A stretch of 64,000 bases of DNA, from assembly GCF_000027125.1 (NCBI RefSeq), contig NC_017626.1; one strand, given 5' to 3'. Below, piece after piece: positions 6,331-48,717 of the stretch (its first letter is position 1; the number at the start of each line of letters is the position of its first letter). The notes beneath the pieces were generated by a model, which was not told the DNA's origin, searched no databases, and was given only the letters and a program-made list of their open reading frames with translations. Source of the DNA: Escherichia coli 042. Lineage in GTDB: Bacteria > Pseudomonadota > Gammaproteobacteria > Enterobacterales > Enterobacteriaceae. The position numbers and the translations under genes were made by a program.

Positions 6331-6378
6331 CACGGTGTTTCCATCGAACAAAGTGCGCATATGCTCGCAAAGCAAAAT

Positions 6379-6412: not shown

Positions 6413-6433
6413 TGTTTGCTGGATTAAGGGGAA

Positions 6434-7771: not shown

Positions 7772-7907
7772 AATTAAACTCCTGCGAAGGCGAGCTTCGT
7801 GACAATAAATTACGTCATATCATACGCCTGCATTCGATAGTTGAATTATTATCGACCGGGTTATCGCTGATGCCGTTATTAATATAGCTCTTCGTTAAGG
7901 TTAAAAA

Positions 7908-9004: not shown

Positions 9005-11272
9005 TTACGCTTTCACACACATAACGTGGTAAATACCGTCAATAATTTCTGTCCCTTCTGTTTCGTGTTCAAATCCAGGGAAATGATGGTCCCAGGATTG
9101 CAGCGAGCGTAAATAACTTACTTGCGGACTGTTTTTATCGCCGAAGTTTTCACCAGACAGCAGCATCGGGATTCCTGGCGGATACGGGATAACTGAGTTT
9201 GCCGCGATGCGTCCTGGCAGATTTTCAATGGATACCAGTTCGACATTGTTGTCGACAATCGCGTTGTACGCTTCACGCGGGGTGATTTCCGCCACCGGCA
9301 GGCCGGAATAGGCTTCGTTCAACCGTGCGCCAGGGTTGTTTTCTTTCAGCCAGGCAAACATGGTGTCACCCAGATCGTGAATCCCCATGTTCGCGTAAGT
9401 GTCAGGATATTGTTCAACAAGTTCCGGCATCACCTGCGCCAGCGGTGTGTTGGCGTCATAGTGGCGTTTGAAGGAGCAAAGGGTGTTAACCAGAGTCCCC
9501 CATTTCCCACGGGTTATGCCCATAGAGAACAGGAACATGATTTGGAAGTCAGTGGTGCGGGTAGGCACAATGCCGTGGCGACCAAGCCAGGCAGTGACCA
9601 GCGCCGCCGGAACACCGGTTTCTTCCAGTTCACCATCTTCACCCATTCCCGGAGCAAGGATGCTGACTTTAATCGGGTCGAGCATACTCCAGTTATCCGG
9701 AATATCTTTGAAGCCGTGCCAGCTTTCGCCCGGATGCATGACCCAGCAGTCCTGAACGGTGGTCAGCAGTTTGGTTGGTGCGTCAGCAAAGTCATAGGTT
9801 TTGCCGGTTTGTGGGTCGGTGACGACTTCTTTGTTCCACGGTTTGAAGAACCAGCTACCGTCAGCGGTGAACTCTTTATACAGCCGCGCCATCGCCTGAC
9901 GGAAATCAACCGCTTCGTCGATCACTTCCTGGGTCAGTGACAGGCCGCTGTTGCCGTCCATCATCGACACTGCCACGTCGTTGGATGCACAGATGGCATA
10001 CAGCGGGGAGGTGGTGGCATGCATCATGTAGGCCTGGTTGAAGCGGGAGAAGTTAATCGCCCCACGACCTTCACGTACATGAATATAAGAGGCCTGTGAC
10101 AGTGCATTCAGTAGTTTGTGGGTGGAGTGGGTGGCGAAAACGGTAGGACCGTTGTGATCGCCAGGTTCGCCGCGCATGGCATAGTGATCGGCATAGATCG
10201 GGTTGAAACGTGCATAGCCGTACCAGGCTTCGTCAAAGTGCAGACGATCGGAGGTTTTTTCCAGCAGATCCTGCGCTTCTTTAGCGTTATAACACACGCC
10301 GTCATAGGTACAGTTGGTCACTACGCAGTAAGACGGTTTTTGCCCGGCTTTGTCTTTAGTCAGCGGGCTTTCACTGATTTTCTTCTGCAAGGTTTCAGGT
10401 TGCATTTCCTGCGGATAGATTGGCCCGATAATGCCGTAGCGGTTGCGGCTTGGCACCATGTAGACCGGTTTCGCGCCCGTCAGCATCAAGCCTTGTTCGA
10501 TGGATTTATGGCAGTTACGGTCAACGACCACGACATCGTTATCGGTCATGCAAGCCTGCATGATGGTGCGGTTAGAGCCGGAAGTACCGACGACTACCGA
10601 CCAGGAGCGATCGGCACCAAATACGCGTGCGGCATATTTTTCGCTTTCGCCAAATGCGCCAGTATGGTCAAGCAAAGAACCGAGGGAAGTTCGTTCGATG
10701 CCCATGTCGGTGCGGAACAGATTTTCACCATAGAAGTCATGGTAGAAACGTCCGGCGGGTGTTTTGGTAAAACCAACGCCACCCTGGTGGCCTGGCGCTG
10801 CCCAGGAATATTCATGGATGTCGCTATATTTCATCAGCGCGCTGAACAGTGGCGGCAACAGTTGCTGGCGGTAGCGGGTCATCGCGGCAACGGCGCGTCC
10901 GGCGATAAAGTCGGCGGTATCTTCCAGAATCCAGGCGAATTCATCGACAAGCTCCAGCAGATCCCGGTCCATTGCGGCGAGGGCTTTTTCCCGATCGCCC
11001 AACAGGAAGACCGGCACGTTTTGTTGGCGCTCATGAAGCTTACCGATCAATTGTCTGACGTTTTGATGTTCGTCCGGATGTTCCATTTGATAGCTGAACA
11101 TCAGGCAGTCAATGGCTTCGTTTGAAGAGAGAATGGCAAAACCATCATCAAAGGAGGTGGATTTAATCACGGTAACATTTTGCTGGCTTAAAGCATCTGC
11201 CAGACGCTCAACGGCGTTACCGACCCAGGTGTCTTGATGGAGAAACTCGCTTTCAACAATTAATACTTTCAT
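9005..11272 (-). CDS. adiA: Biodegradative (acid-inducible) arginine decarboxylase AdiA
   Basis: ORF of 756 aa starting MMKVLIV; fold-type I PLP decarboxylase motifs (STHKLL); paralogous to the cadA product in this same window. Confidence 0.95.
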   Translation of the reverse strand: MKVLIVESEFLHQDTWVGNAVERLADALSQQNVTVIKSTSFDDGFAILSSNEAIDCLMFSYQMEHPDEHQNVRQLIGKLHERQQNVPVFLLGDREKALAAMDRDLLELVDEFAWILEDTADFIAGRAVAAMTRYRQQLLPPLFSALMKYSDIHEYSWAAPGHQGGVGFTKTPAGRFYHDFYGENLFRTDMGIERTSLGSLLDHTGAFGESEKYAARVFGADRSWSVVVGTSGSNRTIMQACMTDNDVVVVDRNCHKSIEQGLMLTGAKPVYMVPSRNRYGIIGPIYPQEMQPETLQKKISESPLTKDKAGQKPSYCVVTNCTYDGVCYNAKEAQDLLEKTSDRLHFDEAWYGYARFNPIYADHYAMRGEPGDHNGPTVFATHSTHKLLNALSQASYIHVREGRGAINFSRFNQAYMMHATTSPLYAICASNDVAVSMMDGNSGLSLTQEVIDEAVDFRQAMARLYKEFTADGSWFFKPWNKEVVTDPQTGKTYDFADAPTKLLTTVQDCWVMHPGESWHGFKDIPDNWSMLDPIKVSILAPGMGEDGELEETGVPAALVTAWLGRHGIVPTRTTDFQIMFLFSMGITRGKWGTLVNTLCSFKRHYDANTPLAQVMPELVEQYPDTYANMGIHDLGDTMFAWLKENNPGARLNEAYSGLPVAEITPREAYNAIVDNNVELVSIENLPGRIAANSVIPYPPGIPMLLSGENFGDKNSPQVSYLRSLQSWDHHFPGFEHETEGTEIIDGIYHVMCVKA

Positions 11273-11470
11273 CATTGCTTACCCGGTTATGAAGGAATCT
11301 TCGTTGCGGGCAAGTATCTTCCGGCCTTTTCGGGCTGTAAAGCGCGTGAAAAACAAACATTTTTGAAATATTTGTTTTTATAAACAATATGTTATGTGAT
11401 TATTTTAAATTATTTTCACTGCTTATTATCGACGGCTAAACTATTTTTTTGGCTGATACTGATATCGTCT

Positions 11471-25578: not shown

Positions 25579-27726
25579 TTATTTTTTGCTTTCTTCTTTC
25601 AATACCTTAACGGTATAGCGGCCATCAGCCTGACGGTATGCACCGTGAATATCGGTTTCAAAGCCCGGATAGTGAGCGCCGATTTCACACAGCATCTGCA
25701 GGAACTCCAGAACCGGACGGCTTTCTTCGGTGATCATTTCACCCGGCATTACCAGAGGAACTCCCGGCGGATACGGAAGGATCATATTGGCGTTAATACG
25801 ACCGACCATTTCGTCGAGGTAAACTTCTTCGGTCATACCGTGCAGCTCTTTCTGGAACGCAGCATACGGAGTCATTACCATTGTCGGCAGCACTTCAAAT
25901 GCGCGATACATCAGATCCGGCAGATTGTGGTGAACAATCAGTTTGTGGATATTCTGAGCCAGTTCCTGAATACGCATGTTTTCATAGAATTCAGGATCTT
26001 CACGATACAGAGACGGCAGCATGTTTTTCACACGCAGGTTCAGATCGAACGCACGTTTGAAGTCAGTCAGAGCACGCAGCAGGCTCAGTGCTTTGGTCTT
26101 ATCGATACCGATGCTGAACAGGAACAGCAGGTTATACGGACCGGTTTTCTCAACAACGATGCCATGTTCGTCGAGGTATTTCGCCACGATGCTGGCCGGA
26201 ATACCGAAGTCGCTCATGGTGCCGTCTTTTTCCATCCCCGGAGTCAGCAGGGTGACTTTGATCGGGTCAAGATACATGTGCTCGTTATCGATGTTTTTGA
26301 AGCCGTGCCAGGTGCTGTCAGAACGCAGCGGCCAGCATTCAGTCGTATCGATATGATCCGGCTGCCATACATCAAAGAACCAGCCATCAGATTCCGTTCT
26401 CAGGCGTTTGATCTCTTTACGGAATTTGATCGCACGTTCAATGGAACCGTTGATCAGACGCTTACCAGCATTACCTTTCATCATCGCCGCAGCGGTTTCA
26501 GTGGACGCCACGATACCGTAGTGCGGAGAAGTGGTGGTGTGCATCATGTAGGCTTCGTTAAAGGTTTCTTCGTTTACGTCACCTTTAACGTGGATCATGG
26601 AAGCCTGAGAGAATGCCGCCAGCAGTTTGTGAGTGGACTGGGTTTCGTAAATCACTTTCCCTTCTACACGGCCACCGCTCATACCGCATTTACCTTCGTA
26701 AATCGGTGAGAAGTTGGTGTAAGGCACCCACGCGGAGTCAAAGTGGATGGATTTGACATCCAGTGTTTTCTTGATGAAGTCGGTGTTGTACAGCAGACCA
26801 TCATAGGTAGAGTTAGTAATTACAGCATGTACCGGCCAGGTTGCGTTTGGTGTTTCTTTCACGCGCTTAGCAATGGTAGCGTGCTGGAATTCACTCTGTG
26901 GGATACCACCAAGAATACCGTAAGCGTTACGGGTCGGGCGGAAATAGATTGGCGTAACATCGCTCATCATCATCAGGTGGGTCAGCGATTTGTGGCAGTT
27001 ACGGTCAATCAGAATGGTGCTGCCTGCCGGAGCTGAGTACATACCAACAATTTTGTTCGCAGTGGAAGTACCGTTGGTCACCATGTAGCTGCGGTCTGCG
27101 TTAAAGACGCGAGCAATATACTGTTCTGCTTCTTTGTGTGGACCACTGTGATCCAGCAGAGAACCCAGTTCAGATACTGAAATGGAAATATCAGATTTCA
27201 TGGTGTTCGGACCAAAGAAATCATAGAACAGGCTACCTACCGGGCTTTTCTGGAATGCAGTACCGCCCATGTGACCAGGAGTACAGAAAGTATATTTACC
27301 TTCACGAACATATTTAAACAATGCTTTGGTCAGCGGAGGCAGAATAGTGTTGATATATTCGTCAGTGGTCTGCTTGATCTTGTTAGCAATATCTTCAGCA
27401 GCACCCAGCGCATATTCAAAGAAGCTAATCTGTAAACGCAGGTCATTCAGGCTTACATCGAGAGTGGAATACGTATTAGCGAACGCGTACAACGGCAGGT
27501 TCTCGTTCATTTTGCTAATTTCTTCGCACAGCTCGAGATTATATTTATCCCAGTCAAAAATAACGCCGCACAGACGCGCATTGTTTTCGATCAGTTTTAA
27601 TAAGTCGTCACGGTCGTTCGGGTAAACAATCTGGAAGTTCAGACGTTCAAGCGCGCGATGAAGTTCACGGATGGGTTCTTCTTTAAAATAAACCCCCATG
27701 TGATTCAATATTGCAATAACGTTCAT
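25579..27726 (-). CDS. cadA: Inducible lysine decarboxylase CadA
   Basis: ORF 25579-27765; internal Met (MNVIAILNHMGVYFKEEPIREL) gives 715 aa; PLP fold-type I; operon with cadB. Confidence 0.95.
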   Translation of the reverse strand: MNVIAILNHMGVYFKEEPIRELHRALERLNFQIVYPNDRDDLLKLIENNARLCGVIFDWDKYNLELCEEISKMNENLPLYAFANTYSTLDVSLNDLRLQISFFEYALGAAEDIANKIKQTTDEYINTILPPLTKALFKYVREGKYTFCTPGHMGGTAFQKSPVGSLFYDFFGPNTMKSDISISVSELGSLLDHSGPHKEAEQYIARVFNADRSYMVTNGTSTANKIVGMYSAPAGSTILIDRNCHKSLTHLMMMSDVTPIYFRPTRNAYGILGGIPQSEFQHATIAKRVKETPNATWPVHAVITNSTYDGLLYNTDFIKKTLDVKSIHFDSAWVPYTNFSPIYEGKCGMSGGRVEGKVIYETQSTHKLLAAFSQASMIHVKGDVNEETFNEAYMMHTTTSPHYGIVASTETAAAMMKGNAGKRLINGSIERAIKFRKEIKRLRTESDGWFFDVWQPDHIDTTECWPLRSDSTWHGFKNIDNEHMYLDPIKVTLLTPGMEKDGTMSDFGIPASIVAKYLDEHGIVVEKTGPYNLLFLFSIGIDKTKALSLLRALTDFKRAFDLNLRVKNMLPSLYREDPEFYENMRIQELAQNIHKLIVHHNLPDLMYRAFEVLPTMVMTPYAAFQKELHGMTEEVYLDEMVGRINANMILPYPPGVPLVMPGEMITEESRPVLEFLQMLCEIGAHYPGFETDIHGAYRQADGRYTVKVLKEESKK

Positions 27727-27805
27727 AGTCATATCTCCAGGTAAAAAAGGCCCCTCCCAACACATGGGACAAAATGAAAGGAGGAGCCTCGGAAAATACT
27801 TTTAA

Positions 27806-29140
27806 TTAATGTGCGTTAGACGCGGTGTGGTTATCCATTGAGTGGCTCTGGCGCTCGTGCATTTTGCGAGCGTAGAACATCAGAATAATCAGGCTGACGA
27901 TGAAGGTACCTGCCAGCTCGAAGGAGCTTGCGCCCATCAGCGCGATGAAGCAGAACACGCAACCCAGTACAGAGCAGATCAGGCTGACAAAGTTGCGGAT
28001 GTTAACGCCTTCAAAACGAATCAGGTCAACGCAAGAGTAGAAGTACGGCAGCATAGTCAGCAGTACTGCGATACCGGTCAGTTCACCGAACAGGTCAGAT
28101 GCTTTACCACCGGCAGAGTTCATCAGAGTGATGAGGATCATCAGGGCAGTCATTTTCACTGCAGCCAGCAGCAGACCTTTTTTCGGAATACCGTTGCTGT
28201 CGACTTCACCATAAACTTTCGGGAAGTTACCGTCGTTAGCGGCACGTACACCTGCCTGGCCTACCAACATCATCCAGGAGCCCAGAGAAGTCAGGCACGC
28301 AAAGGCGGTGAATGCAGAAACCAGCGGCGCAGCCCAGTTACCGAGGATAGTTGAAGCACTGATTGCAAACGGAGCACCGGAAGCTGCCATTACAGAAGAC
28401 GGATACATACCGGAAAGCACCTGAGTCGCAGCGATATAAACAATACCTGCTAAACCAGTACCCAGCATGGTTGCCAGCGGAACGGTACGTTTCGGGTTTT
28501 TAACCATACCAGTACTTACTGCTGCGGATTCAACACCCACGAAGGCCCACAGGCAGAGCAGAATACTTTTAATGATCGCATGACCATCAGTGGTATCCGC
28601 AGTATTCCAGTTAGCTGCATAAGTTGCAGCATCAAACCAATGCCAGCCAACAATAGCAGTCATCACCACAGGAATAAGAACCAGCACCAGACCAATAGTG
28701 GTTAAACGGCTTACCCAGGTACCGCCGAGCATATTTACAAAGGTAAATACCCAGACGATAGCAATACAGGCGATACCCGCCGGAACAGGATCATTTAATA
28801 CTGGGAAGAAGGTGGAAAGATAAGATACAGCGGTAATACCAATCGCCAGGTTACCAATCCAGTTAGCATGGTAATAAAGAACACCTGTCTGAAAACCAAA
28901 TGCAGGGGAAATTTCTCCGGCATAAGCAATTGGGCCACCTTGTTGCGGGTTTTTTGTTGCCAGTCGGGCATATACATACGCCAGCGACATTGCACCAATA
29001 ATAGAGATAATCCAACCCCAGATAGCAATACCACCGATACTTGCTAGGTTCGCAGGTAATAATGCAATACCGCTCCCCATCATATTACCGGCAACCACAC
29101 CGGTACAGGCAAATAGCCCGATCTTCTTGGCAGAACTCAT
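27806..29140 (-). CDS. cadB: Lysine:cadaverine antiporter CadB
   Basis: 444 aa APC-family transporter; MSSAKKIGLFACTGVVAGNMMGSG. Confidence 0.95.
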   Translation of the reverse strand: MSSAKKIGLFACTGVVAGNMMGSGIALLPANLASIGGIAIWGWIISIIGAMSLAYVYARLATKNPQQGGPIAYAGEISPAFGFQTGVLYYHANWIGNLAIGITAVSYLSTFFPVLNDPVPAGIACIAIVWVFTFVNMLGGTWVSRLTTIGLVLVLIPVVMTAIVGWHWFDAATYAANWNTADTTDGHAIIKSILLCLWAFVGVESAAVSTGMVKNPKRTVPLATMLGTGLAGIVYIAATQVLSGMYPSSVMAASGAPFAISASTILGNWAAPLVSAFTAFACLTSLGSWMMLVGQAGVRAANDGNFPKVYGEVDSNGIPKKGLLLAAVKMTALMILITLMNSAGGKASDLFGELTGIAVLLTMLPYFYSCVDLIRFEGVNIRNFVSLICSVLGCVFCFIALMGASSFELAGTFIVSLIILMFYARKMHERQSHSMDNHTASNAH

Positions 29141-29505
29141 GCTCTTCTCCTAATTTCATTTTTGAATTTGGAGTCCGGGTCATGATGTATAACTATTTCC
29201 TGACCAGACCAAACTGGCGCTAAGAATACTCACGAAAAAAGGATTAATCCTAAAGATTAGGTGAAATAACACAAAAGTTTCTGTAAGTGAGAACTTGAGG
29301 TTTTTTATTAACACATCAGGATCGCAAGTTGATATCATGAAAAGATAAACATTCAATGTTTACAATGGATTGCGGGACATTTTCTGGTTAAATTTATGTA
29401 ATAAAAATTATGCGGCAAATAAATTGCCGCAACATATTATACCAACAGAAACATACAAAAACTCAACAATAAATATTGCCGAGCATAAATCAACCCGGGA
29501 GTTAC

Positions 29506-31044
29506 TTATTCTGAAGCGAGAAATTTGTCGAGATAAGGTACAACATAAGGAACAGAAGTCTGGAATATACCATTTTCAATCCAGTAAAGGGTGTTTGCCC
29601 CTGGGCGTAAATTAAAGGCGGTGAGATATGCATCAGCTGCTTCCCGGTTCATCCCCTTCATTTCATAAACCTTGCCAAGCAACACATAATTTAGCCAGGA
29701 CATTTCAAGATCAATGCCAGTATTTATCGCCTGGTAAGACTCATCTGTTTTACCTTTTACCAGAGCACTGACCGCTTTTATTTGATATATAATGGACAGG
29801 TTATTCAATTCCGGTAGTGTAACAATGTTATCTATTTCTGTGTTCAGTGCTGCTAATTGTTTTTCATCTAAAGGATGTTGAGAATGGCGCACGATATCAA
29901 CTAATGCTTTTTCTGCTCTCGCGTAGGTAAATTCTGGGGATGATTGAACAATCTCACCTAATAATTCACTGGCACGGTTCAATGATTTATCATCGCCATG
30001 CAGTAAATAATCATGTGCCTGATAAAAATTAGTTAATAACGCACCACGATGAGGCAAAATTTGCTGGAGCATCTCCTGCATTCGTTGTGGCCACGGTTGG
30101 TTTAACGCTTTTGATAAACTCTGGAGTAAATCATTTTGAATCGCCAGCTGATTACCGTTAGTGATGACATAACGTTTATCCAGCATGGTTGAACCATCTG
30201 CATTGTCTACCAATTTTACCGACATAAAGCATTGTTGAGCACGGTATTGGCGCTGATTAACAAACGCAATAGATAATGTTTTACCGGAACTGCTCGGTTC
30301 ATCAATGTTGTAGTTGATTTTGTCATGCACCATAAAGGTGGAGAAGGTGTTAAGTGATGTCGCCACCAAATCACCCACGCCTATCGCGTAAGAGAGCTGA
30401 TACGGGGAACTCCAGCTGTTACAACTTTTATTTACCATATTAATGTCAATATCGCGTGGATTGAGCAAAATACGCGATTTGCTCATCGGAAGACGTGTAT
30501 CAAGACTTGAAAACGCTACCAGTGCTACACAGATACCTAACGACAACAGGAAAAAAAACCATACCCAAAAGGTAGTGAATCGTTTGCTTTTAACTGGGGA
30601 TTGTTCAGGTGGCGTTGCGGTGTTTTGAATGTTAAGACTGTGGGAGGGAGAATCTGTGTCAGGAACCGCCTCTGGTATAGGGGGAGGCGAAGATAGCATT
30701 ATTTCCTCTCCCTCTTCTTCGCTGTACCAGATAACCGGCACCATTAATTTATAGCCGCGCTTTGGTACAGTAGCGATATAGACAGGACTATCTTCATCAT
30801 TATCTTTTAATGACTTACGTAGTTCTGAGATACTCTGCGTCACAACGTGATTGGTGACAATACTTCTCTTCCAGACATTATCGATAAGTTCATCCCTGCT
30901 AAGTACTTCGCCACTGTGTTGAGCAAAGAAAACCAGAAGATCGATTAATCTCGGCTCAAGGGTAAGTTGACGCCCATTGCGGCTAATTTGGTTTATGGAC
31001 GGAGTAACAAGCCATTCGCCAACGCGAACTACAGGTTGTTGCAT
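29506..31044 (-). CDS. cadC: Membrane-bound transcriptional activator CadC (ToxR-like)
   Basis: 512 aa; N-terminal winged-helix (MQQPVVRVGEWLVTPSINQISRNGRQLTLEPRLIDLL), single TM, periplasmic sensor domain. Confidence 0.93.
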   Translation of the reverse strand: MQQPVVRVGEWLVTPSINQISRNGRQLTLEPRLIDLLVFFAQHSGEVLSRDELIDNVWKRSIVTNHVVTQSISELRKSLKDNDEDSPVYIATVPKRGYKLMVPVIWYSEEEGEEIMLSSPPPIPEAVPDTDSPSHSLNIQNTATPPEQSPVKSKRFTTFWVWFFFLLSLGICVALVAFSSLDTRLPMSKSRILLNPRDIDINMVNKSCNSWSSPYQLSYAIGVGDLVATSLNTFSTFMVHDKINYNIDEPSSSGKTLSIAFVNQRQYRAQQCFMSVKLVDNADGSTMLDKRYVITNGNQLAIQNDLLQSLSKALNQPWPQRMQEMLQQILPHRGALLTNFYQAHDYLLHGDDKSLNRASELLGEIVQSSPEFTYARAEKALVDIVRHSQHPLDEKQLAALNTEIDNIVTLPELNNLSIIYQIKAVSALVKGKTDESYQAINTGIDLEMSWLNYVLLGKVYEMKGMNREAADAYLTAFNLRPGANTLYWIENGIFQTSVPYVVPYLDKFLASE

Positions 31045-31624
31045 AATAGAAACTCATTCGAAAAGGGAATGATGCAATGATAATTGCCACAACCTATTTT
31101 TACCATCTATAGATGGGTTTATTTACATATTATTGGTGAATGCAAGACGTTATTTTTACCAGACATAAACTTCTTGATCACATAGTATTGAGAAAGGATT
31201 TTACTGAGAACCAGAAGTAATATTCCTTACCATCAAAATTCATCATCTTTGCCAAAGAAAAATGTTCAGAAAATAATCCATGGAAAATTGTCCGGAGCGC
31301 TTACTATTTTAATGGATTGTTAGTCTTTGCATGAGCAAGCGGACTGATACATTTCTCTTTGTTCTCATTCAGAAAATCTCATCAGTCGGCGTTCAGACCG
31401 GTGTTGTGCTTTATGGATGCGTTACGCTCCTGATGACGTCATTTGACATTCAACAGCATCACGGGGTCGCACGACATTTCACGTCAGTCAGCGCTATAGC
31501 TCAGGAACAAATTTTCCCGAATTGGGATATACCCGCAAAATGCTGGTGTTGTGGGGAGAATTTGGTTGAGTTCGGTAGAAATGATTTTTAGGCAGAACGC
31601 TTAAATTGTGGCGTCCTGAAACGA

Positions 31625-31652
31625 AAAACGGACCTCCGTGGAGGTCCGTTTA
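31625..31652 (-). terminator. Rho-independent terminator next to the tRNA-Phe remnant (likely the former pheU terminator)
   Basis: On the minus strand: cggacctccacggaggtccg stem followed by TTTTT, immediately 3' of the tRNA-Phe 3'-end remnant. Confidence 0.5.
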
Positions 31653-31660
31653 TATGAATT

Positions 31661-34327: not shown

Positions 34328-34819
34328 TTAAAGCAGACCGTGTTCCGCAAAGGAGAAAACCTGGCTGCCACCGACTATCAGATGGTCCGGTACCCGGATA
34401 TCAACCAGGGCCAGTGCCTGTACCAGACGCTCAGTGATAAGGCGGTCTGCCTTGCTGGGGGGGACTTCACCGGACGGGTGATTGTGCGCCAGCACCACGG
34501 CAGCGGCATTGTGGTACAGGGCGCGTTTAATCACTTCCCGGGGATGGACTTCCGTACGGTTGATGGTGCCGGTGAAGAGGGTTTCACCGGCAATCAGCTG
34601 ATTCTGGTTGTTCAGATACAGCACCCGGAACTCTTCACGCTCCAGTCCCGCCATGTTCAGAATCAGCCATTCCCGTGCCGCATGCGTGGAGGTGAAGGCC
34701 ACGCCGGGTTCATGAAGATGGCGGTCCAGGGTTTTCAGGGCCCGCTGAATGAGGCTGCGCTCGCCGGGTGTCATCTCTCCGGGCAGAAAGGAAAGTTGTT
34801 GCATTGTGCTTCTCTCCAT
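34328..34819 (-). CDS. RadC-like JAB/MPN-domain protein (YeeS/YkfG/YfjY family)
   Basis: JAMM motif region HNHPSGEVPPSKAD; 163-aa ORF, true start possibly 5 codons in. Confidence 0.85.
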   Translation of the reverse strand: MERSTMQQLSFLPGEMTPGERSLIQRALKTLDRHLHEPGVAFTSTHAAREWLILNMAGLEREEFRVLYLNNQNQLIAGETLFTGTINRTEVHPREVIKRALYHNAAAVVLAHNHPSGEVPPSKADRLITERLVQALALVDIRVPDHLIVGGSQVFSFAEHGLL

Positions 34820-35293
34820 TCAATCGATGATGCGCATAATGGCGCTGCATTCCGGATGCTGCAGGGCGTAATCCCGCAGCCGGTAATAATGGACCGTCAT
34901 GGCATAACACTCCGTACGACAGGCATGATGACTGTACGTCATCAGACAGGCGGCAATGCCGGCGGCTTCCGGGCTCATTTCAGCGCGGTTACCGTTCATG
35001 GCATTGAACAGTACCCAGTTTTCGCCATCATCGTCATCCGGTTCGGGTGCCATAAATGCCCCGCCGTTGTTCAGGGTGTACAGATTCCAGATACCACCGC
35101 AGTAGTTTTCGCAAAGACGGTCCATCCAGCCGAAGACACGGGGCTCCAGGGTCACCCACTGTGGAATGAGGCCAAAGTGCTGCGGCCAGAAACTGATACG
35201 TTGTTCATCAGGGACGAGGCTGGCAACCAGTTGTTGCAGGTCAGTCTCCGGTGCTGAGACCGAAGAGGTGGTGTTCTGAGACAATGTTTTCAT
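34820..35293 (-). CDS. Antirestriction protein (YfjX/YafX/KlcA-ArdB-like)
   Basis: 157 aa; typical position upstream of radC in CP4-type islands; acidic DDDDGENW stretch. Confidence 0.78.
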   Translation of the reverse strand: MKTLSQNTTSSVSAPETDLQQLVASLVPDEQRISFWPQHFGLIPQWVTLEPRVFGWMDRLCENYCGGIWNLYTLNNGGAFMAPEPDDDDGENWVLFNAMNGNRAEMSPEAAGIAACLMTYSHHACRTECYAMTVHYYRLRDYALQHPECSAIMRIID

Positions 35294-35594
35294 ATGTGAA
35301 ATCCTTGTAGTGTGAATAAATGCGAGGAAGTAAAGGTCGGGTGGCTGATAACATCACGTTCATCACTGACCGTGAGACCCGGTAATATCAGGGATGAATG
35401 ATATTCGGCTGAAATTCCGGACAGCCGTACGCGTAACCGTTCCGGTCACAGACGGATGGCCTGATGCCATTGCCTGTACTCAGTCTGCACAGACTGATTT
35501 CTCCGGGACGGTAAAGCAGACGGGTATACCAGGCGCACAGGTCATCATCAGAAATGGAACGACATCCCGGCAGCGCCTTCAGGGACAGGCTGCA

Positions 35595-36413
35595 TCAGCG
35601 CAGGCTCTCCAGCAGCGTTTCCGCCATCACCCACAATGCGCGGTTGAGCTTAATATCGGTGTCGATGCTGTGAATGGCACGGGTGTGGATACGTTTTCCT
35701 CTGGCACTGCGACCGGAAATCCCGCCTTTCAGCATATTCTCCTGGATGGTCTGATAAGTACTCCACAGGTCCTTACCGTAATCCTCCCTGCGTCGCGGTG
35801 TCAGAATGTCAGCGGTGGTGACGGGCTGATGTTCGTCACCATAACGGTAAGTCAGTGCCGCCTGTGCCAGCGCCTGGCGTGCCGGTGGCGGCAGAATCAG
35901 CGACTGCATGGCATCACGCTTTTCCTCAATCCGGTCAAAAACCCCCACCACCTCGTAAGCCCCTTCAATGACTCTGTCCACCACATTTCCCCGGTGCGGA
36001 ACACGCACTTCCCCCAGAGACTGACCACAGACGCATCCGTTCTGGCAGACGAACCTGAAGTAACCCGGCAGCATCTGGTAGCTGGAGGTACCGTCATGAG
36101 AGTTGAGCAGAATAATTTCAGGGAAATGTTCTCCGTTTATCTCTCCGGCCCGCCGCAGACGCAGCATGTGTTTTGTGTATCCCCGGCGGCCCGGGTCGCG
36201 CACACGGGTCTGGCAGGCGAAGAATGGCTGAAAGCCTTCCCGCTGCAGGCTTTCCAGTACGGTGATGGTGGGGATGTACGTATAGTTCTGGCTTCGGGAC
36301 GTGTGTTTATCTTCCCCGAAAATCCCCGGCACATAGTGCATCAGTTCTTCGTGTGTCAGCGGACGGTCACGGCGTATCTGGTTCGCATAACCAAAACGAC
36401 TGGCTAGTCGCAT
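35595..36413 (-). CDS. DUF932-type protein (YafZ/YfjQ-like)
   Basis: 272 aa; conserved position in the CP4-like backbone; no catalytic motif recognised. Confidence 0.65.
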   Translation of the reverse strand: MRLASRFGYANQIRRDRPLTHEELMHYVPGIFGEDKHTSRSQNYTYIPTITVLESLQREGFQPFFACQTRVRDPGRRGYTKHMLRLRRAGEINGEHFPEIILLNSHDGTSSYQMLPGYFRFVCQNGCVCGQSLGEVRVPHRGNVVDRVIEGAYEVVGVFDRIEEKRDAMQSLILPPPARQALAQAALTYRYGDEHQPVTTADILTPRRREDYGKDLWSTYQTIQENMLKGGISGRSARGKRIHTRAIHSIDTDIKLNRALWVMAETLLESLR

Positions 36414-36512
36414 AATTTGCTCCTTATCGGTGGTTAAGATTTACTGGTGTAATAAATGAAAAAGCCACGTCTCCCGGAGAAGACGCGGCCTGATGGGTGA
36501 AATGAATGACGT

Positions 36513-36746
36513 TTATTGTCTGAGAAGACCGTCACTGGCGAGCCGCGTATTAAGCACCTTTCCGGCATCGGGTTCAGAATTCCGGCAGCGCCAGCGTCGC
36601 TGACCTTCCGCGTTGCGGATAACCCGACGGAAATGCATTCCCGGGTCATCCTGGATAAACACATTGCGGTAAGCTGTTATGACAGCAACCGCCTGCCCGT
36701 ATGAGAAAGATCCTTCAGCCAGGACATACTCTGTGTAACCCGGCAT
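36513..36746 (-). CDS. Small hypothetical protein (77 aa), possibly YkfF/YfjS-like
   Basis: Short ORF in backbone position; weak support. Confidence 0.35.
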
Positions 36747-36824
36747 ATCTGTTTTCTCCTGATAAATAAAAAGCCTCTGCCACGCGTTGTGACAGAGGCT
36801 GAAGCATGAAACTGACTTCAGGGA

Positions 36825-37280
36825 TCAGTTAACGTTTTTTCCGGAAACGGTAATTAGCAGTGGATGGTAGTCCTGGGGATCGAAAACCGATAACGGCAGA
36901 CTGACACGATGGCCGTTACTTTCTTCAGTTGCTTTAATGATTTCGGTTGTGGCGACATTTTCCACGCACTCCGTTTCCAGAAATGCGTCTGTGGTTCGCG
37001 TGGCATTACTGTCACCAAAAGCTTCCGTTTCCATTTTTCTGGTCACCAGCGTCTGACCATATTTGTCTTTGAGTTGCAGAGTGATGGTGAGGGGGCCAAA
37101 CCCTTCATCGTTTCCGCCATTATCCAGCCGGAACTGGTAAGCACAAATATTTCCCGGGAGCCATATCGTATCTGTATTGCGTATACTGATGTAACGTTGA
37201 TCCTGTGCCCGGAGTGGGGCAGACCACGTTAACCCCAGAATGAAGGCGGTAATCATGCAGGTTTTGAACAGGTGAATCAT
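36825..37280 (-). CDS. Secreted/periplasmic protein with signal peptide (151 aa), YfjT-like
   Basis: N-terminal hydrophobic signal MIHLFKTCMITAFILGLTWSAPLRA with an AQD cleavage-like site. Confidence 0.55.
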   Translation of the reverse strand: MIHLFKTCMITAFILGLTWSAPLRAQDQRYISIRNTDTIWLPGNICAYQFRLDNGGNDEGFGPLTITLQLKDKYGQTLVTRKMETEAFGDSNATRTTDAFLETECVENVATTEIIKATEESNGHRVSLPLSVFDPQDYHPLLITVSGKNVN

Positions 37281-37355
37281 GGTATTTACCTCTCTGAATC
37301 ATGACGATGACACTGACAAGTCAGGTGATAAAACGTAAAAGGTGCAGAATACTCG

Positions 37356-39878
37356 TTATGCCGGTAACTCCGGGGGTAATGCTTCTTCCAGCCGGTTAAC
37401 CATATTGCCGAGATGGGATGCATCATATTCCATGACGGGGCGTTGCCTGATGATACTGACCACCAGTGGTTTGATTAACATATTGGTCGCGGCCCGTTGT
37501 TGTATACCGGCGGCGAAAATGATCTCCAGAGCATTCTGATCGATAACACGGGCCAGATTCGCGTTCAGATTTTCTGTTTCATGTCCGGTCAGCAGGAAAC
37601 TGCCGGCAAGCCATGTCACCTGTTCCTGAATCATTGCCAGAATTTTGACGCGATCTTCTTCAACCAGCGCTCCGGCAATTTTTCCTGATACAGCGGAGGC
37701 AATCATTCCCCCCAGAACACCGCCAACCACACGCCCTGTCAGTGCACCAAATGGTCCCAGTGGACTGAACAGTATCCCGCCCGCCACTGACCCGACAGCT
37801 CCACCTGCCACACCGGAAGATGCCACGGCAAGATTCCTGATGAACTGCGTACCGGAGATCCGTCCCCGCAACATTTTGATCATGTCAGGGCCGGTTGTGA
37901 CAGCTACCAGTGCCAGAGATGTCACCAGCGTACCCTTCATCACTTTGTTCAGGGCACTGATATTTCCTGTACCGGTCCCCTTCTGAAGAGCCAGTCGGAC
38001 AGTCGGACTGGCCGTCGAAAAATCAATGTGCTTCAGCATACCCTGAACAACACTGAGCCGGTGAAGTTGCTGGGTTGTGACGTAGACAGCCAGTGTGCGG
38101 GTGAAGGTTTTTCCTGCCTGGACAGCAGCTGTCTGCAGGGCAGCATCGCGATCGCCGGTGCTGAGCCAGAAGACCGATGCCGTCAGGGCAAAACTGATCC
38201 CTCCGGCCGCCAGACTGACAACCGAACCCTCGGCAATATCATAAGTGACCGATTCGATGGTCCCGAACCGGGTGATATTACGGGCCTGGGTATAAGTCAG
38301 ATGTCCCCGACGAATCAGCCGGGACGCTTCTGCGGGATCGGTTACACCAGGTACTTTACCTTCGCGGATCTTATTCCTCATGGTTTCAACAGCGCCGGCA
38401 TACTGATCACGGGGGACTTCCAGTTGCATGGGGCCATGATTTCCCATGTAACGATACTGTCCGTTTTGTCCGTCGAATGCCGCACCGACGCTACGGGCTG
38501 CAGTTGAACAATATTTCGTCTGGATCTCTGTTCCGCTGACCAGTCTGTCTGCTCCATTTCTGGCATTATTATCACCGAGGATCCGTGCGTTTTTCAGACG
38601 GACTCTGTCGACAATATGGTTTCCCCGTTCAGCGGCAAACCCATGTCCCTGCCCTCCGGAAGCAAACATTTTCTCATTTGTACTCCAGGTTTCCGGCAGT
38701 TTCATGAGAATCAGACCATTCGCCGTTGCATCGGAAATAAAACTGTTGTAGGGGCGTTCATAAATTTCCTGACACAGTGTTTCTGTTTCGCGACAAAGAG
38801 AGGAGCAGTACCATTCCGGATCCGGCTTATGATTTTCCGGGGCATGATGTACTTCTGTCAGCCCGCAGGAGGCACAGATACGAAGCTCATCCACGTGATG
38901 GAATGATACAAAACGGCGACCTTCTGAAAAGGGATACCAGTCACCGCCGTCCAGGCAACGATCGAGAAAATCGTCATTCGCTTCCGGTGATAAATTCAGG
39001 CGGTTCCGGAAGAGGGTTTTCAGTTCATCAGGGGTAAATGACAGGCTCTCTCTCAGCTTTTCGTTGAAACCCGCCATGTTTCTTTCATACCAGGCATTGT
39101 CCAGTAGCCAGTTTCCGTCTGCCAGTTCAAATTCCCTCAGTTCTCCCCGGGAAATCCGTTGTGAAATGAGTGTCAGCCAGATGCGCTCCGTCAGCGTTTC
39201 AGGAAGGCTGTAATCGTTTTGCAAACTGCTCAGCCATGATTTACTGTTGAGCACCGGTTGTTCTTCCAGTGTCTGGCTGATGGCACTGGTCAGTCTTTTC
39301 AGCGCCTGGATCTGGCTGGCCGCCCATAGCAGCGTCACTAATGCAGCCAGCCAGTACAACAACCCGCCCCACCACATCAGTGAGGGTGAAATATCGAACT
39401 GCAATGCGATCAATGGTGCGTATGCAGAACACGCCATAAGGAAAAAGGCAGTATAAAAACAGCAGTAATACCCGTTAATTTCCTTGCTGATATCTTCAGG
39501 TGTGAGCCCGTTCTGCTGAATGGTTCTTATCTGCACGGGAAGAGCCAGCAGACCAGCGGCGAGAGCGGTGGTCAGAATAAATTTTACAGAGTCAAAAGTA
39601 TGAGCCTCCAGTGCGATATGTTTACCATCAAGTCCCCACATGAAGCTGATGATCATTCCGGCAATCGTCAGAAATACGCCTGCCAGCCAGCGAATATGGA
39701 ATAACCGGGTTATGCGTTCAGTGATATAGCCAGCCAGTAAAGCCGGACCGAACAGACACAGCAATATGAACCCTGCCAGCGCAGACGCTGTGCTGGTTAA
39801 TGCTCTGAACAAAAGGCGAAGAATGGCAAATCCTGCGATCAGCAGAATCAGCGCGCCGACTATCTGTAACATAGTCAC
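37356..39878 (-). CDS. YeeR-like inner-membrane protein (840 aa) with Gly-rich C-terminal segment
   Basis: Multiple N-terminal TM helices, Cys cluster (CASCGL...CSSLC), C-terminal Gly-zipper-like stretch GVAGGAVGSVAGGILFSPLGPFGALTGRVVGGVLGG; immediately downstream of flu as yeeR is in CP4-44. Confidence 0.7.
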   Translation of the reverse strand: MTMLQIVGALILLIAGFAILRLLFRALTSTASALAGFILLCLFGPALLAGYITERITRLFHIRWLAGVFLTIAGMIISFMWGLDGKHIALEAHTFDSVKFILTTALAAGLLALPVQIRTIQQNGLTPEDISKEINGYYCCFYTAFFLMACSAYAPLIALQFDISPSLMWWGGLLYWLAALVTLLWAASQIQALKRLTSAISQTLEEQPVLNSKSWLSSLQNDYSLPETLTERIWLTLISQRISRGELREFELADGNWLLDNAWYERNMAGFNEKLRESLSFTPDELKTLFRNRLNLSPEANDDFLDRCLDGGDWYPFSEGRRFVSFHHVDELRICASCGLTEVHHAPENHKPDPEWYCSSLCRETETLCQEIYERPYNSFISDATANGLILMKLPETWSTNEKMFASGGQGHGFAAERGNHIVDRVRLKNARILGDNNARNGADRLVSGTEIQTKYCSTAARSVGAAFDGQNGQYRYMGNHGPMQLEVPRDQYAGAVETMRNKIREGKVPGVTDPAEASRLIRRGHLTYTQARNITRFGTIESVTYDIAEGSVVSLAAGGISFALTASVFWLSTGDRDAALQTAAVQAGKTFTRTLAVYVTTQQLHRLSVVQGMLKHIDFSTASPTVRLALQKGTGTGNISALNKVMKGTLVTSLALVAVTTGPDMIKMLRGRISGTQFIRNLAVASSGVAGGAVGSVAGGILFSPLGPFGALTGRVVGGVLGGMIASAVSGKIAGALVEEDRVKILAMIQEQVTWLAGSFLLTGHETENLNANLARVIDQNALEIIFAAGIQQRAATNMLIKPLVVSIIRQRPVMEYDASHLGNMVNRLEEALPPELPA

Positions 39879-39992
39879 TCCGTGATGAATATCATGTTAT
39901 TGTGAATGCCAGTGAATGTGGCACTGAAATGTTTTCCCCCGTCCGGGTCCCGGTCATGATGACCGGAACCACAGAGAGGCAATGCAGAATTA

Positions 39993-42900
39993 TCAGAAGG
40001 TCACATTCAGCGTGGCCTGACTGTTATAACCTTCAGCGCTGCTGCCGCTGACGCTGTGGGCATAACCGGCCTGAACGCCCAGGGTGATATTTTCCCGGAC
40101 ACGGGCTTCCAGTCCGGCCTGCAGATCCAGTGAAGTGCCATTCTGTGAGGGAGAGAACGTCATCCCGCTGCCTGCGGTGGAGGTCCCCACACGCATATCA
40201 CCCCGGGAGCTGAAGGTGCGGATAACGGAAGGCTGTACCCACCAGTTCACCGGCAGTTCACGCACACTGTGTTTTGCACTGTCACGCAGGGGGGCACGGG
40301 ATGAGGTGCCTTCACCAAAGGTCATATCGTTGTGGCTGCCCAGACGGAAACCGGCACGCACATGTTGTGCACTGCCATGCCCGAACTTCACATAACCGGC
40401 GTTGTCCTTACCGTCATCCAGCGAAAGCCCCTGCCAGGTGTACTGCAGCCGTGGCTCCAGCATCAGGTTGTCAGTAATACTGAAGGGCAGACCGGTTTCC
40501 AGTGAGCCCAGCCAGCCCCAGCCCCGTGCGCGGAAGTCGTTATTGCCCGATGACGCTTTCATACTGTGGCGGGTTCCCTGTGCCACAATGTCAGCCCACA
40601 GGCCGGAGGAGGTGTGTGTCAGGTTCATATATCCGCCCAGGCTGCCGGCATCATCCCGGACCGTGCCGGCGCGGGAGCCGTCATCATCCTTAACATCAAC
40701 GGAAGAATGGCCTGCAGCACCATACACTCCTGTCGTCAGTGACATACCGGCGACCTCTGTTCTGAGCAGGTCACCCTCCAGACGGACGAAGCCATAGCTG
40801 CCGCTGCTTTCCGGCGTGGCCCCACGGGCAATACCGCCGTTGTTATCGTGACCGAGATGGCCGCCCTGAATGCTGAGACGGACGCTGTTATTTTCACCGT
40901 TTACACCGGTCTGATGGCTGCGTGAGCCTGCCAGAATCCGGTCATAGTCCATTGCCTGTGTCAGCATGGAGGCGTACAGGGGGACTTCAGCACGATAACG
41001 TTCTTCACTGCGCAGATACCAGCTCTCATCACTGTCCCGGTTGAGGGTGTAGTTAAAGGCCCCGGCCTGCAGCATATTCCCCTGGACAAAAGCCCCTTCC
41101 TCCGTGGTGGCACCGTTAATGGCCTCAACCACCTGAATACCCTTACCGGTGGTCGCCAGCCCCGTACCACTGTTGCCGGCGTTCACCAGATTCAGGATGG
41201 TTTTTCCGGTTGCCCTGCCACCGTCAATGACCAGTCTGTCAGCATTGTTCTGCGCCATATCCGGGCGTACACGCAGGCTGATGGTGCCATTCTGCCCGTT
41301 CAGGTTTTTCACCTGCAGGGTTGCCGGTACGAACTTCCCTGTGCGGGTGGAGGTGAAATGAATCTGTCCGGCATGGCTGAGGTCATCCACCACCGACTGC
41401 ACCGTGGCGTTATCAGGGATATTCCAGGTGGCACCGGATGTCAGGGTGACATTCGTGGGGTCAATGGCACCGTTCAGCACTGTGCTGCCGGTCAGCTTCA
41501 GGGCCGTGCCGCGCTGAGCGATGACATCCGTGGTGACGGTACTGTCGTTCAGCGTCAGCGTGCCTTCATTCAGGTTGACGGTTTTCTGGGTGAGTGTGGT
41601 GTTGCTGACAGTGAGTGTGCCACTTCCTGATTTTTCCACCCTGCCGTTACCGGTAAGAGCGCCTCCCTGCAGGAGTGCATCACCTTCACGGATGGTCAGG
41701 GTATCGTTATTCACCGTTTTCCCGGAAAGGGTAAGCGTGGCACCGTTATTCAGCGTGGTGGTGCCCGCCAGCGAGCCCCCTCTGGCAGTGAACAGTCCGC
41801 CATTTACCGTGGTATCCGTGGCCGTATCACCGGCGTTCAGCGTGAATGAACTGCCTTTTTCCAGCATCAGGGCATCCGCCTGACCGCCCCCGATACGGAA
41901 TGCCGTTCCGTCGCTCCGGGTACCACTGACAGCGGCCCCGGAATCGGCCAGCAGTACACCGCCATTCCCCATGGATACGGTGGTGGCGGCACCACCGTTG
42001 CGGACATCCAGCGTTCCGCCATCATCCACACGGGTATTAGTGGCTGTGTGTCCGCTCAGCACATCCAGACGTCCGCCATTTTCCAGTACGACATTATCAG
42101 CCTTACCCGCCAGAACGGAGAATGCTCCCAGGCGGTTTGTGCCGGTGACGGTTGCAGCTGTGCTGGTAACCAGTGCACCTCCCGTGTTCTGGGTGACATC
42201 AGACGCTTTACCGCCGGCATTCACCTGCAGCTTTCCTTTCTGGTTGATGGTGGTATGCGCGGTAGTTCCTCCTTCCTTAATCACCTGCCAGCCCCCCTCG
42301 TTAATTACCGTGTTCAGCGCAAGTCCGTATTTGTGCACATACTGGTTTCCTCCCTCCAGCCGGGTGTTATGTGCCTCGCCGTGTACCGTCTGGTCACCGC
42401 CGGCGTAAATGAGGGTGTCCCGTGCCATCCCCGAAGACCAGATAACCTGCCGGCCATTTTTGTTGATGGTGGTGGATTCAGCCGTCCCTCCGACCATCTG
42501 ACCGCTGGACACATTTTCAGACTCCGGACCACCTTCTGCACCGGTGTTGACGATGGTTCCGGTTGCCTGCCCGCCATGTTTAATGGTCTGGTAGCCAGAC
42601 TGGTTAATCACCGTTCCGGATGCACTGCCGCCTGCATGTATCCATTGTTCACCACCGTTAAGGACAGTACCGTAAGCCTGCCCGCGCAGATTCTGTCCTC
42701 CACCGGCACTGATAACCGTATCCGTGGCACTGCCACCTGCCATGACATCCTGCAGACCGTTTGCGGTGACCGTGGTGTTTCTGGCAGTGCCACCCCGGGC
42801 TATCTGCTGACCGCCGGTGTTGTCATCAGAGTCCGGCCCCAGCTCAAGCCCGGTACTGACAGTCACGCCATCAGCTGTTCCGGATACAAACTGGTTGTCA

Positions 42901-43112
42901 TGGTTTACCAGTGTTCCGCCATTCACTGTTTCACCCGGGTGCACAACGATGTCAGCAGCCAGCACCGGGAGTGACGTGACTGCGGCAAGAGACAGTGCAA
43001 CCGCCACACCGCCACGTTTACCCCGTGCGCGGGCCAGTTCGGAGGCAACCACGAAAGCGCCCGTAATGTGATTCCATACCAGCCTGTAGCAGGTATTCAG
43101 ATGTCGTTTCAT
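39993..43112 (-). CDS. flu: Antigen 43 (Flu) self-associating autotransporter adhesin
   Basis: ORF 39993-43118; from the third Met (MKRHLNTCYRLVWNH...) gives 1039 aa; extended signal peptide, beta-helical passenger repeats, C-terminal beta-barrel ending ...ATLNVTF. Confidence 0.93.
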   Translation of the reverse strand: MKRHLNTCYRLVWNHITGAFVVASELARARGKRGGVAVALSLAAVTSLPVLAADIVVHPGETVNGGTLVNHDNQFVSGTADGVTVSTGLELGPDSDDNTGGQQIARGGTARNTTVTANGLQDVMAGGSATDTVISAGGGQNLRGQAYGTVLNGGEQWIHAGGSASGTVINQSGYQTIKHGGQATGTIVNTGAEGGPESENVSSGQMVGGTAESTTINKNGRQVIWSSGMARDTLIYAGGDQTVHGEAHNTRLEGGNQYVHKYGLALNTVINEGGWQVIKEGGTTAHTTINQKGKLQVNAGGKASDVTQNTGGALVTSTAATVTGTNRLGAFSVLAGKADNVVLENGGRLDVLSGHTATNTRVDDGGTLDVRNGGAATTVSMGNGGVLLADSGAAVSGTRSDGTAFRIGGGQADALMLEKGSSFTLNAGDTATDTTVNGGLFTARGGSLAGTTTLNNGATLTLSGKTVNNDTLTIREGDALLQGGALTGNGRVEKSGSGTLTVSNTTLTQKTVNLNEGTLTLNDSTVTTDVIAQRGTALKLTGSTVLNGAIDPTNVTLTSGATWNIPDNATVQSVVDDLSHAGQIHFTSTRTGKFVPATLQVKNLNGQNGTISLRVRPDMAQNNADRLVIDGGRATGKTILNLVNAGNSGTGLATTGKGIQVVEAINGATTEEGAFVQGNMLQAGAFNYTLNRDSDESWYLRSEERYRAEVPLYASMLTQAMDYDRILAGSRSHQTGVNGENNSVRLSIQGGHLGHDNNGGIARGATPESSGSYGFVRLEGDLLRTEVAGMSLTTGVYGAAGHSSVDVKDDDGSRAGTVRDDAGSLGGYMNLTHTSSGLWADIVAQGTRHSMKASSGNNDFRARGWGWLGSLETGLPFSITDNLMLEPRLQYTWQGLSLDDGKDNAGYVKFGHGSAQHVRAGFRLGSHNDMTFGEGTSSRAPLRDSAKHSVRELPVNWWVQPSVIRTFSSRGDMRVGTSTAGSGMTFSPSQNGTSLDLQAGLEARVRENITLGVQAGYAHSVSGSSAEGYNSQATLNVTF

Positions 43113-43304
43113 CAGCATTTCCTTAATCAGAGTGAGGGTGAATAAAAAAGCCGGTATCCACAGATGTGGATACCGGCAGGTAAAGGGTTACAGTGCCGGA
43201 GGTCCGGCTGACGGAAGTTTCTGACGTGTGGCTCTGTTGTTCCCTGAATCTCATGTCTGTGTGTATCTGCGCACGTTGCTAACAGGAGTTATTATTAGCA
43301 TGAC

Positions 43305-48504: not shown

Positions 48505-48717
48505 ATGGAAGTTAAAACCAAAGAAGACTGGCTGTATCAGTTCCGTCGTTGTTCATCCCGGGAGACGCTGGAAAAAGTGATTTCCCACACACGTTATAAA
48601 CTTACCCTTGCGGAGCTGGAAGCCTTCAACTCTGCGGTTGATCACCGACTGGCAGAACTAACCATGAACAAACTTTACGATCGCGTTCCGGCTTCTGTCT
48701 GGAAATATGTTACCTGA
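48505..48717 (+). CDS. hha: Hha/YmoA-family nucleoid-associated modulator paralogue
   Basis: 70 aa; ...[56 protein letters not shown] aligns with core Hha (RRCQTIDTLERVIEK...[25 protein letters not shown]). Confidence 0.8.
   Translation: [70 protein letters not shown]

Follow-up and report, generated by a model that had tools for sequence, protein, structure and literature searches.

Within a 64,000-nucleotide stretch of DNA from Escherichia coli 042 (contig NC_017626.1; the whole stretch is termed here the window), the gene yeeR encodes an 838-residue membrane protein that is best explained, tentatively, as a membrane-tethered, cytoplasm-facing nuclease, carried as cargo by an integrative element and acting in conflicts with mobile DNA, that of phages included. 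The proposal turns on a conserved core between a cysteine cluster and a glycine zipper--the most informative part of the protein, overlooked in a first-pass annotation that had pointed to the features on either side of it--which, from structural models, is predicted to adopt the PD-(D/E)xK restriction-endonuclease fold with an Mrr-like 'PD-QxK' pattern. The gene belongs to the YeeR family (PF27347; K-12 b2001, 'CP4-44 prophage inner membrane protein YeeR') and occupies the same position after agn43, the gene for the autotransporter Ag43.

Under this proposal YeeR would cut, at the inner membrane, foreign nucleic acid that in the proteobacterial clade would be bound by winged-helix units and a zinc ribbon, and confinement to the membrane, the glycine-zipper module, or both would keep the enzyme off the host chromosome or provide a means of control. 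Expression of the E. coli gene from the phase-variable, OxyR/Dam-controlled agn43 promoter would, because of the landing site within the island, reflect where the gene came to rest rather than a service to Ag43.

The gene merits attention for its frequency, roughly one in two complete E. coli genomes having it, for its transcription together with the genes of a well-studied adhesin and of a vaccine candidate, and because the remnant present in the K-12 reference hides the conserved part of YeeR. The domain interpretation provides a testable handle: a cytoplasm-facing, PD-(D/E)xK-like core, tethered at the membrane and conserved across phyla together with a glycine-zipper module, whose genes lie among defense genes.

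Domain anatomy and the predicted core fold

Residue numbers refer to the 838-residue protein; AlphaFold (AF2) confidence is given as the predicted local distance difference test score (pLDDT), TM denotes transmembrane, and K+R counts are counts of lysine plus arginine. The coding sequence and the regions of the protein are as follows:

37356..39872, minus strand: yeeR coding sequence, full length, 838 amino acids (aa); ATG at 39872, stop codon at 37356-37358
39303..39872, minus strand: residues 1-190, six TM helices, poorly conserved, predicted N-in/C-in (hydropathy; AF2 pLDDT ~80-92; K+R counts)
38883..39260, minus strand: residues 205-330, two predicted winged-helix-like alpha/beta units (AF2 pLDDT 85-90; Foldseek)
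38772..38876, minus strand: residues 333-367, cysteine cluster CxxC-x19-CxxxC-x6-C (C333, C336, C356, C360 and C367 invariant in 30 homologues)
38235..38663, minus strand: residues 404-546, conserved core, predicted PD-(D/E)xK-like fold
37662..38228, minus strand: residues 549-737, membrane module: two hydrophobic helices (549-570, 645-662), then a hairpin with the glycine zipper, 681-735 (37668-37832)
37359..37661, minus strand: residues 738-838, C-terminal helical domain (conserved F759, L761, E765, N772, N797, K801, P802, Q810 and R811; pLDDT 75-84)

The features named by the first-pass annotation are all present. Hydropathy places six hydrophobic segments, the expected N-terminal TM helices, within residues 1-190; the cysteine cluster reads C333-x2-C336 ... 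C356-x3-C360 ... C367; and the glycine-rich, zipper-like segment near the C-terminus (residues 681-735) is 28% glycine, with GxxxG motifs at G694-x3-G698 and G713-x3-G717-x3-G721. These cysteines and GxxxG motifs are invariant in a family alignment of 30 homologues, which are 30-67% identical to YeeR and collinear with it from residue 1 to 838. Conservation along this alignment is uneven: residues 1-330 vary freely, and about 75 invariant columns occur from C333 on. The cysteine cluster is a probable zinc ribbon or treble clef; a Pfam search with 25 core-domain sequences returned only faint zinc-finger noise (zf-MYND, DUF2116).

The AF2 model of the whole protein has a mean pLDDT of 73.9. Within it, residues 205-330 locally match the winged helices of ESCRT-II, SelB and F93 in Foldseek searches (probability 0.90-0.99, E ~0.1-0.7), and long helices at 539-668 carry the hydrophobic stretches 549-570 and 645-662. 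The orientation of the membrane segments was assessed by the positive-inside rule: averaged over the 30 homologues, the predicted inside loops contain 2.1 (loop 2-3), 3.9 (loop 4-5) and 4.0 (after TM6) K+R, and the predicted outside loops 1.1, 0.2 and 0.3. These counts indicate that both ends of the N-terminal region lie inside and that the central domains are cytoplasmic; the prediction is thus that core, zinc ribbon and winged-helix-like units all face the cytoplasm, held to the membrane from both sides. A periplasmic core was also considered and, given these same counts and the cysteine zinc ribbon, was judged less likely.

Because a Foldseek search with the whole 838-residue model retrieved only matches to the winged-helix part and membrane-protein noise, the core was modeled separately, using 53 diverse sequences, which yielded a pLDDT of 87.3 and a predicted template modeling (pTM) score of 0.81. 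The order of elements in this model is helix 409-424, strand 429-431, strand 443-445, strand 448-452, short helix 458-463, strand 483-486 and helix 488-503. Its invariant residues are H410, E415, N418 and D422 (helix 1), D442-R443 (at the start of strand 2), Q451-T-K453 (strand 3) and E485-V-P (strand 4, which contains E485 in the model). Five of these occupy canonical PD-(D/E)xK positions--E415 on helix 1, D442 directly preceding strand 2, Q451 within strand 3, K453 at its end, just outside it, and E485 in strand 4--and the set is invariant in 53-62 distant homologues. Foldseek's best local matches to the core are Hjc and CdiA-CT, with no significant E-value. Glutamine in place of the second acidic residue characterizes the active 'PD-QxK (Mrr-like)' subgroup (PMC11347163, PMC11037411), to which EcoKMrr and BisI/NhoI belong; with the Mrr catalytic domain, YeeR shares the D...QxK pattern only. 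YeeR differs from such Mrr-like nucleases, moreover, in that its core is set between membrane segments and in that no NTPase or modification-reader domain was identified.

The glycine zipper likewise recalls known proteins (C19orf12-like PF20721 and tape-measure proteins), which have repeated GxxxG motifs within a hydrophobic hairpin. Searches of the full protein against Pfam-A, NCBIfam and PHROGs returned only weak matches to such glycine-rich families; that to PF20721 (C19orf12) scores 18.6 bits against a cut-off of 30, that is, below the gathering threshold. As a side observation, the segment at 37668-37832 weakly matches tape-measure proteins (phrog_167, E 0.0017; PDB 9ki1 chain g, E 0.0013), whose glycine-rich segments enter the inner membrane when DNA is injected. 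The tape-measure and C19orf12 matches may reflect composition only.

The conserved unit extends well beyond E. coli. A profile of residues 326-548 matches 1026 representatives (50%-identity clusters) in a library of 1.84 billion proteins, many of which lack the YeeR N-terminus: their core lies close to the N-terminal end or follows Sel1 repeats, a TerB domain or a double zinc ribbon. Nearly all nonetheless retain about 290 residues downstream of the core (281-302 aa in the middle half of 224 homologues), and the consensus of this tail in distant homologues is the same glycine-zipper/helical region. Because so many homologues dispense with the N-terminus yet keep the tail, the family-defining unit is a module of about 440 aa, consisting of the 150-aa core plus the glycine-zipper/helical tail, and not the N-terminal membrane part; the six TM helices, the winged-helix units and the zinc ribbon belong specifically to the YeeR clade of Proteobacteria. 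The invariant columns hold in the 30-, 62- and 53-sequence sets alike. The family already has a Pfam model, PF27347 (YeeR_C), and it is the definition of the module as core plus glycine-zipper tail that is new here. The Pfam assignment is precomputed on a 96%-identical cluster representative and on nearly all of 120 listed homologues, so that the membership of YeeR itself is indirect.

Genomic contexts and known systems

A search with one peptide pattern of 100,044 species genomes located 345 loci, distributed among Proteobacteria, Firmicutes, Cyanobacteria, Lentisphaerae, Acidobacteria, Chlamydiae and Campylobacterota. Several loci outside E. coli contain genes typical of mobile elements or of defense: a RES-Xre toxin-antitoxin pair in Pseudomonas; HicAB, a TIR protein and IS66 in Methylomonas; an integrase island with DUF6361/PLD genes in Herbaspirillum; type II CBASS (cyclic-oligonucleotide-based anti-phage signaling system), antirestriction and integrase genes in Alcaligenes; and insertion sequence (IS) elements in Stenotrophomonas. 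An all-against-all BLASTP survey of 507 neighbors from 79 of the 345 loci revealed no universal partner gene. WYL-WCX regulators lie upstream in 12 of the 79 loci, and Sel1, HTH_3, AAA_14-DUF4143 ATPases and TerB recur in smaller sets.

A 67%-identical Enterobacteriaceae orthologue is located in a CP4-type element of the same kind, where a WYL gene, a 281-aa gene, a 481-aa gene and YeeR are followed by dndBCDE. The 281-aa and 481-aa genes correspond to PDC-M09A and PDC-M09B of PADLOC (E 1e-119 and 1e-216, respectively); the designation PDC-x denotes unpublished PADLOC phage defense candidates (PMC11811056). The order WYL, PDC-M09A, PDC-M09B, YeeR is found in Enterobacter and Serratia, the PDC-M09B gene thus lying directly upstream of the YeeR orthologue. 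In one locus from an Enterobacter metagenome-assembled genome (MAG; positions 5556-11323 of that locus), WYL-WCX, PDC-M09A, PDC-M09B and full-length YeeR stand in a row on one strand, followed by dndBCDE, and six further loci have the same order.

PDC-M09A is a membrane protein with a coiled coil and a Gly/Ala zipper. PDC-M09B (~481-483 aa) is, judging by its sequence, a remote homologue of YeeR_C: the two are collinear, sharing an HGE...D...VQSK signature and a glycine-rich hydrophobic region, and PDC-M09B keeps 'KHGEIAEQ...ADYKIDGIEVQSKF...HIPKD'. YeeR gives a weak, partial and collinear match to the PDC-M09B profile (E 1.6e-5); by BLASTP the similarity of YeeR_C to PDC-M09B is not significant, and hhalign aligns only the D...QxK stretch. 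The row of four genes may be a single multi-gene system with two paralogous YeeR_C-type proteins. The tie to PDC-M09 is an association with a candidate rather than with a proven system, and the window's YeeR is not itself a PDC-M09 component: its match to PDC-M09B is the weak, partial one just described, its neighbors are agn43 and irmA and, unlike the PDC-M09 loci, E. coli yeeR has no adjacent PDC-M09A. A literature search on PDC-M09, YeeR_C and PF27347 found nothing relevant.

Closely spaced YeeR_C-type genes occur a second time on the metagenomic contig JAUNIO010000017.1, where two genes with a YeeR_C core lie a few kb apart. Sel1 may recur as a partner domain, its repeats being fused N-terminally in 4 of 62 distant homologues and present in neighboring proteins in 8 loci. 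The YeeR homologue of Pseudomonas sp. WN033 has, two called open reading frames (ORFs) or ~1.5 kb upstream of it, a gene for an 853-aa Ser/Thr kinase-DnaJ_C-Sel1 protein (4703-7264 of the locus).

A precedent for the proposed mechanism, with unrelated domains, is SNIPE, a single-pass membrane anti-phage nuclease in which DUF4041 is combined with a cytoplasmic GIY-YIG domain and which cuts phage DNA during injection; its membrane tether prevents self-cleavage and positions it at the site of phage DNA entry, and the protein becomes toxic once released from the membrane (bioRxiv 10.1101/2025.11.03.685801). YeeR is predicted to follow the same logic, a single polypeptide uniting an anchor in the inner membrane with a DNA-binding module and a nuclease domain that both lie in the cytoplasm. 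Unlike SNIPE, with its one TM helix, YeeR has six or more, along with winged-helix units, a zinc ribbon, a PD-(D/E)xK-like core and a tail bearing the glycine zipper; the two are not homologous. A Pfam search gave YeeR no match to DUF4041 or GIY-YIG, and it is not a SNIPE protein.

A broader generalization, which is speculative and on balance rather unlikely, is that YeeR_C proteins constitute a widespread class of membrane-integrated PD-QxK nucleases that would act at the inner membrane to restrict incoming DNA of phages or plasmids, by themselves or together with a glycine-zipper gate or effector. If so, this defense would be phase-variable in E. coli, since yeeR is transcribed along with agn43 under Dam/OxyR switching, and the cells that are Ag43-ON (aggregating) would be those armed with YeeR as well. 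Should the domain interpretation given above hold, YeeR would provide, beside SNIPE, a second and unrelated example of a nuclease parked at the membrane, and phase variation of Ag43 would be linked to immunity. Demonstration of a restriction or abortive-infection phenotype would raise interest in YeeR substantially, given the promoter it has in common with Ag43.

Weighing the nuclease against other explanations

Several points weigh against a nuclease acting in defense. The core has no Pfam, NCBIfam or PDB sequence-profile match to nuclease families, and in an hhalign comparison of the 53-sequence core profile with EcoKMrr the probability was 1.1% and the motif was unaligned; because this comparison was negative, what is claimed is the fold and the motif, and not membership in the Mrr family. 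(Nor did PDB sequence searches with full-length and core profiles reveal a relative with a solved structure.) The glycine-zipper region is modeled with low confidence (pLDDT <50 for residues 670-737). YeeR matches no validated defense model in PADLOC 2.0, only an unvalidated candidate, and that weakly; its defense-gene neighbors are raw observations from the loci read; and some loci resemble ordinary chromosome, that of Dyella lying between a GGDEF gene and a TonB receptor. A mechanism of self-protection, which a cytoplasmic nuclease would need because no immunity or modification gene adjoins it, is conjectured. Papers that mention YeeR term it 'uncharacterized' (PMC4807369), and a search for a functional study of yeeR found none beyond papers on irmA and on gene duplication.

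One alternative is that YeeR serves as an abortive-infection or stress effector, which, once triggered, would depolarize the membrane or open a pore in it by means of the glycine-zipper hairpin together with helices 549-570 and 645-662, the core, winged helices and zinc ribbon acting as a sensor of nucleic acid rather than as a nuclease. This would account for a tail conserved as universally as the core and weakly resembling both C19orf12-type zippers and the glycine-rich segments of phage tape-measure proteins, for the presence beside a YeeR homologue of PDC-M09A, with its coiled coil and Gly/Ala zipper, and for neighbors that are defense-island genes. It is nevertheless judged unlikely: the full catalytic-type set of E, D, QxK and E stays invariant even in very distant homologues, suggesting chemistry beyond binding, and the matches to glycine-rich proteins (E ~1e-3) may be compositional.

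Another explanation, also improbable, sees in YeeR a housekeeping membrane-stress protein or a membrane scaffold without catalytic activity, whose core would bind a ligand or partner and whose location in an island would be incidental. It draws on the lack of any profile-level tie to a nuclease family, on loci without obvious mobile or defense neighbors (such as that of Dyella), on the association of TerB and Sel1 with stress systems too, and on the dispensability of yeeR in K-12. Set against it are the island contexts, from which, together with a patchy, phylum-spanning distribution, YeeR is taken to be horizontally moving cargo, and the invariant acidic, glutamine and lysine residues on canonical catalytic positions.

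An accessory role of YeeR in the secretion or surface display of Ag43 (or IrmA) or in autoaggregation, as the first-pass annotation implied in linking YeeR with Ag43, is highly improbable: among non-E. coli loci whose called genes were read, none has an autotransporter neighbor, nor does an autotransporter appear among the recurring neighbor clusters or listed family matches of the 79 genome loci; the 67%-identical orthologue follows WYL and PDC-M09AB rather than agn43; the conserved domains are predicted to be cytoplasmic; and K-12, whose YeeR remnant is without the entire conserved tail of YeeR_C, displays functional Ag43. The idea takes its support from the operon itself, the three genes being adjacent, co-transcribed in EC958 and OxyR-repressed (PMC4807369), with no terminator-like site among them and a sole strong hairpin after irmA; IrmA, however, reaches the supernatant without Ag43 or YeeR (PMC4807369). 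The link of YeeR to Ag43 is positional, through the operon, and probably not functional. The membrane-tethered nuclease remains the preferred, if tentative, explanation.

The locus in E. coli 042 and the K-12 deletion

Other features of the locus are as follows:

39878..39881, minus strand: GGAG, Shine-Dalgarno-like, 5 nt 5' of the ATG (read from the sequence)
39993..43118, minus strand: agn43 (Ag43 autotransporter), upstream gene of the published agn43-yeeR-irmA operon (ORF list, annotation, PMC4807369)
36825..37280, minus strand: irmA, downstream gene (ORF list, annotation)
34781..38351: stretch of 3,571 bp missing from K-12 (blastn of the K-12 locus against the window; annotations)

The mechanically called ORF (37356..39878, minus strand; 840 aa) starts at a GTG at 39878, two codons 5' of the ATG at 39872, which is likely the true start: the same ATG is the RefSeq start of a 100%-identical gene in E. 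coli O104:H4 FDAARGOS_349 (WP_001387066.1, an 838-aa 'membrane protein').

The first-pass annotation correctly described YeeR as considerably longer than its K-12 counterpart (838 or, from the GTG, 840 aa versus 510 aa) and surmised that it is the intact form of a gene truncated in K-12, which is borne out. K-12 yeeR aligns only to 38352-39872, that is, to the first 507 codons, at 96% DNA identity, and then runs straight into yeeS. The 3,571-bp deletion, which removed yeeR codons 508-838, irmA, DUF905, DUF932, an antirestriction gene and the first codons of radC/yeeS, thereby fused yeeR, at codon 507, to the 5' part of yeeS/radC. The K-12 protein retains the six TM helices, the winged-helix units, the zinc ribbon and about three-quarters of the core; because residues 508-838 were lost--the end of the core, the C-terminal membrane segments, the glycine zipper and the helical domain--it is a poor model for the family. 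That the long form is intact and the K-12 form truncated by a deletion that also took irmA had been published before (Moriel et al. 2016, PMC4807369; Bernabeu et al. 2019, PMC6480617), so that this point adds nothing to the literature.

A length of about 840 aa is the family norm, and is unusual relative to K-12 only. Among 5426 complete E. coli genomes, 2582 have a yeeR match, which covers at least 80% of the query in 1797; the E. coli YeeR cluster at 90% protein identity has 15,556 member sequences and an 838-aa representative that is 96% identical to YeeR here. The full-length homologues retrieved from 5.8 billion proteins measure 815-855 aa and align collinearly with 94-100% of the query; they belong to Gamma- and Betaproteobacteria, among them Enterobacteriaceae, Pseudomonas, Shewanella, Methylomonas, Dyella, Cupriavidus, Herbaspirillum, Alcaligenes and Stenotrophomonas. 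A fusion or frameshift artefact as the cause of the length is ruled out by the full-length, collinear homologues in two proteobacterial classes.

Transcription of agn43, yeeR and irmA together, under OxyR repression, has been described in EC958 and CFT073, and irmA in strain 042 has its own promoter (PMC4807369, PMC6480617, PMC9431211). In the window, no terminator-like site was found between agn43, yeeR and irmA, the sole strong terminator-like hairpin lying 3' of irmA at 36772-36800. The 120-bp agn43-yeeR spacer contains, just past the agn43 stop (39946-39970, minus strand), an imperfect 12-bp inverted repeat, GGTTCCGGTCAT/ATGACCGGGACC, without a T-run, which could be an mRNA stability or attenuation element inside the operon.

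Downstream of irmA are, in order, DUF905, DUF932, antirestriction, radC, DUF987 and a YeeU/CbtA toxin-antitoxin pair, which is the layout of a CP4-44-type island. ARAGORN detected no tRNA genes in the window. The island is 99.9% identical to that of E. coli O104:H4 FDAARGOS_349, this identity being confined to window positions 31653-54620; on its left, the window has cadCBA and an integrase (27000-31653), and FDAARGOS_349 has gsp/yghD beside the same island. Because the flanks differ, near-identical copies of the island occupy different chromosomal sites in different strains. The yeeR/irmA island also includes an extra hha paralogue at ~48505-48717 (its position taken from the annotation of a related locus), near genes of the inovirus-Gp2 family and for a 'zinc ribbon' protein; hha2 has been linked with yeeR/irmA (PMC6480617).

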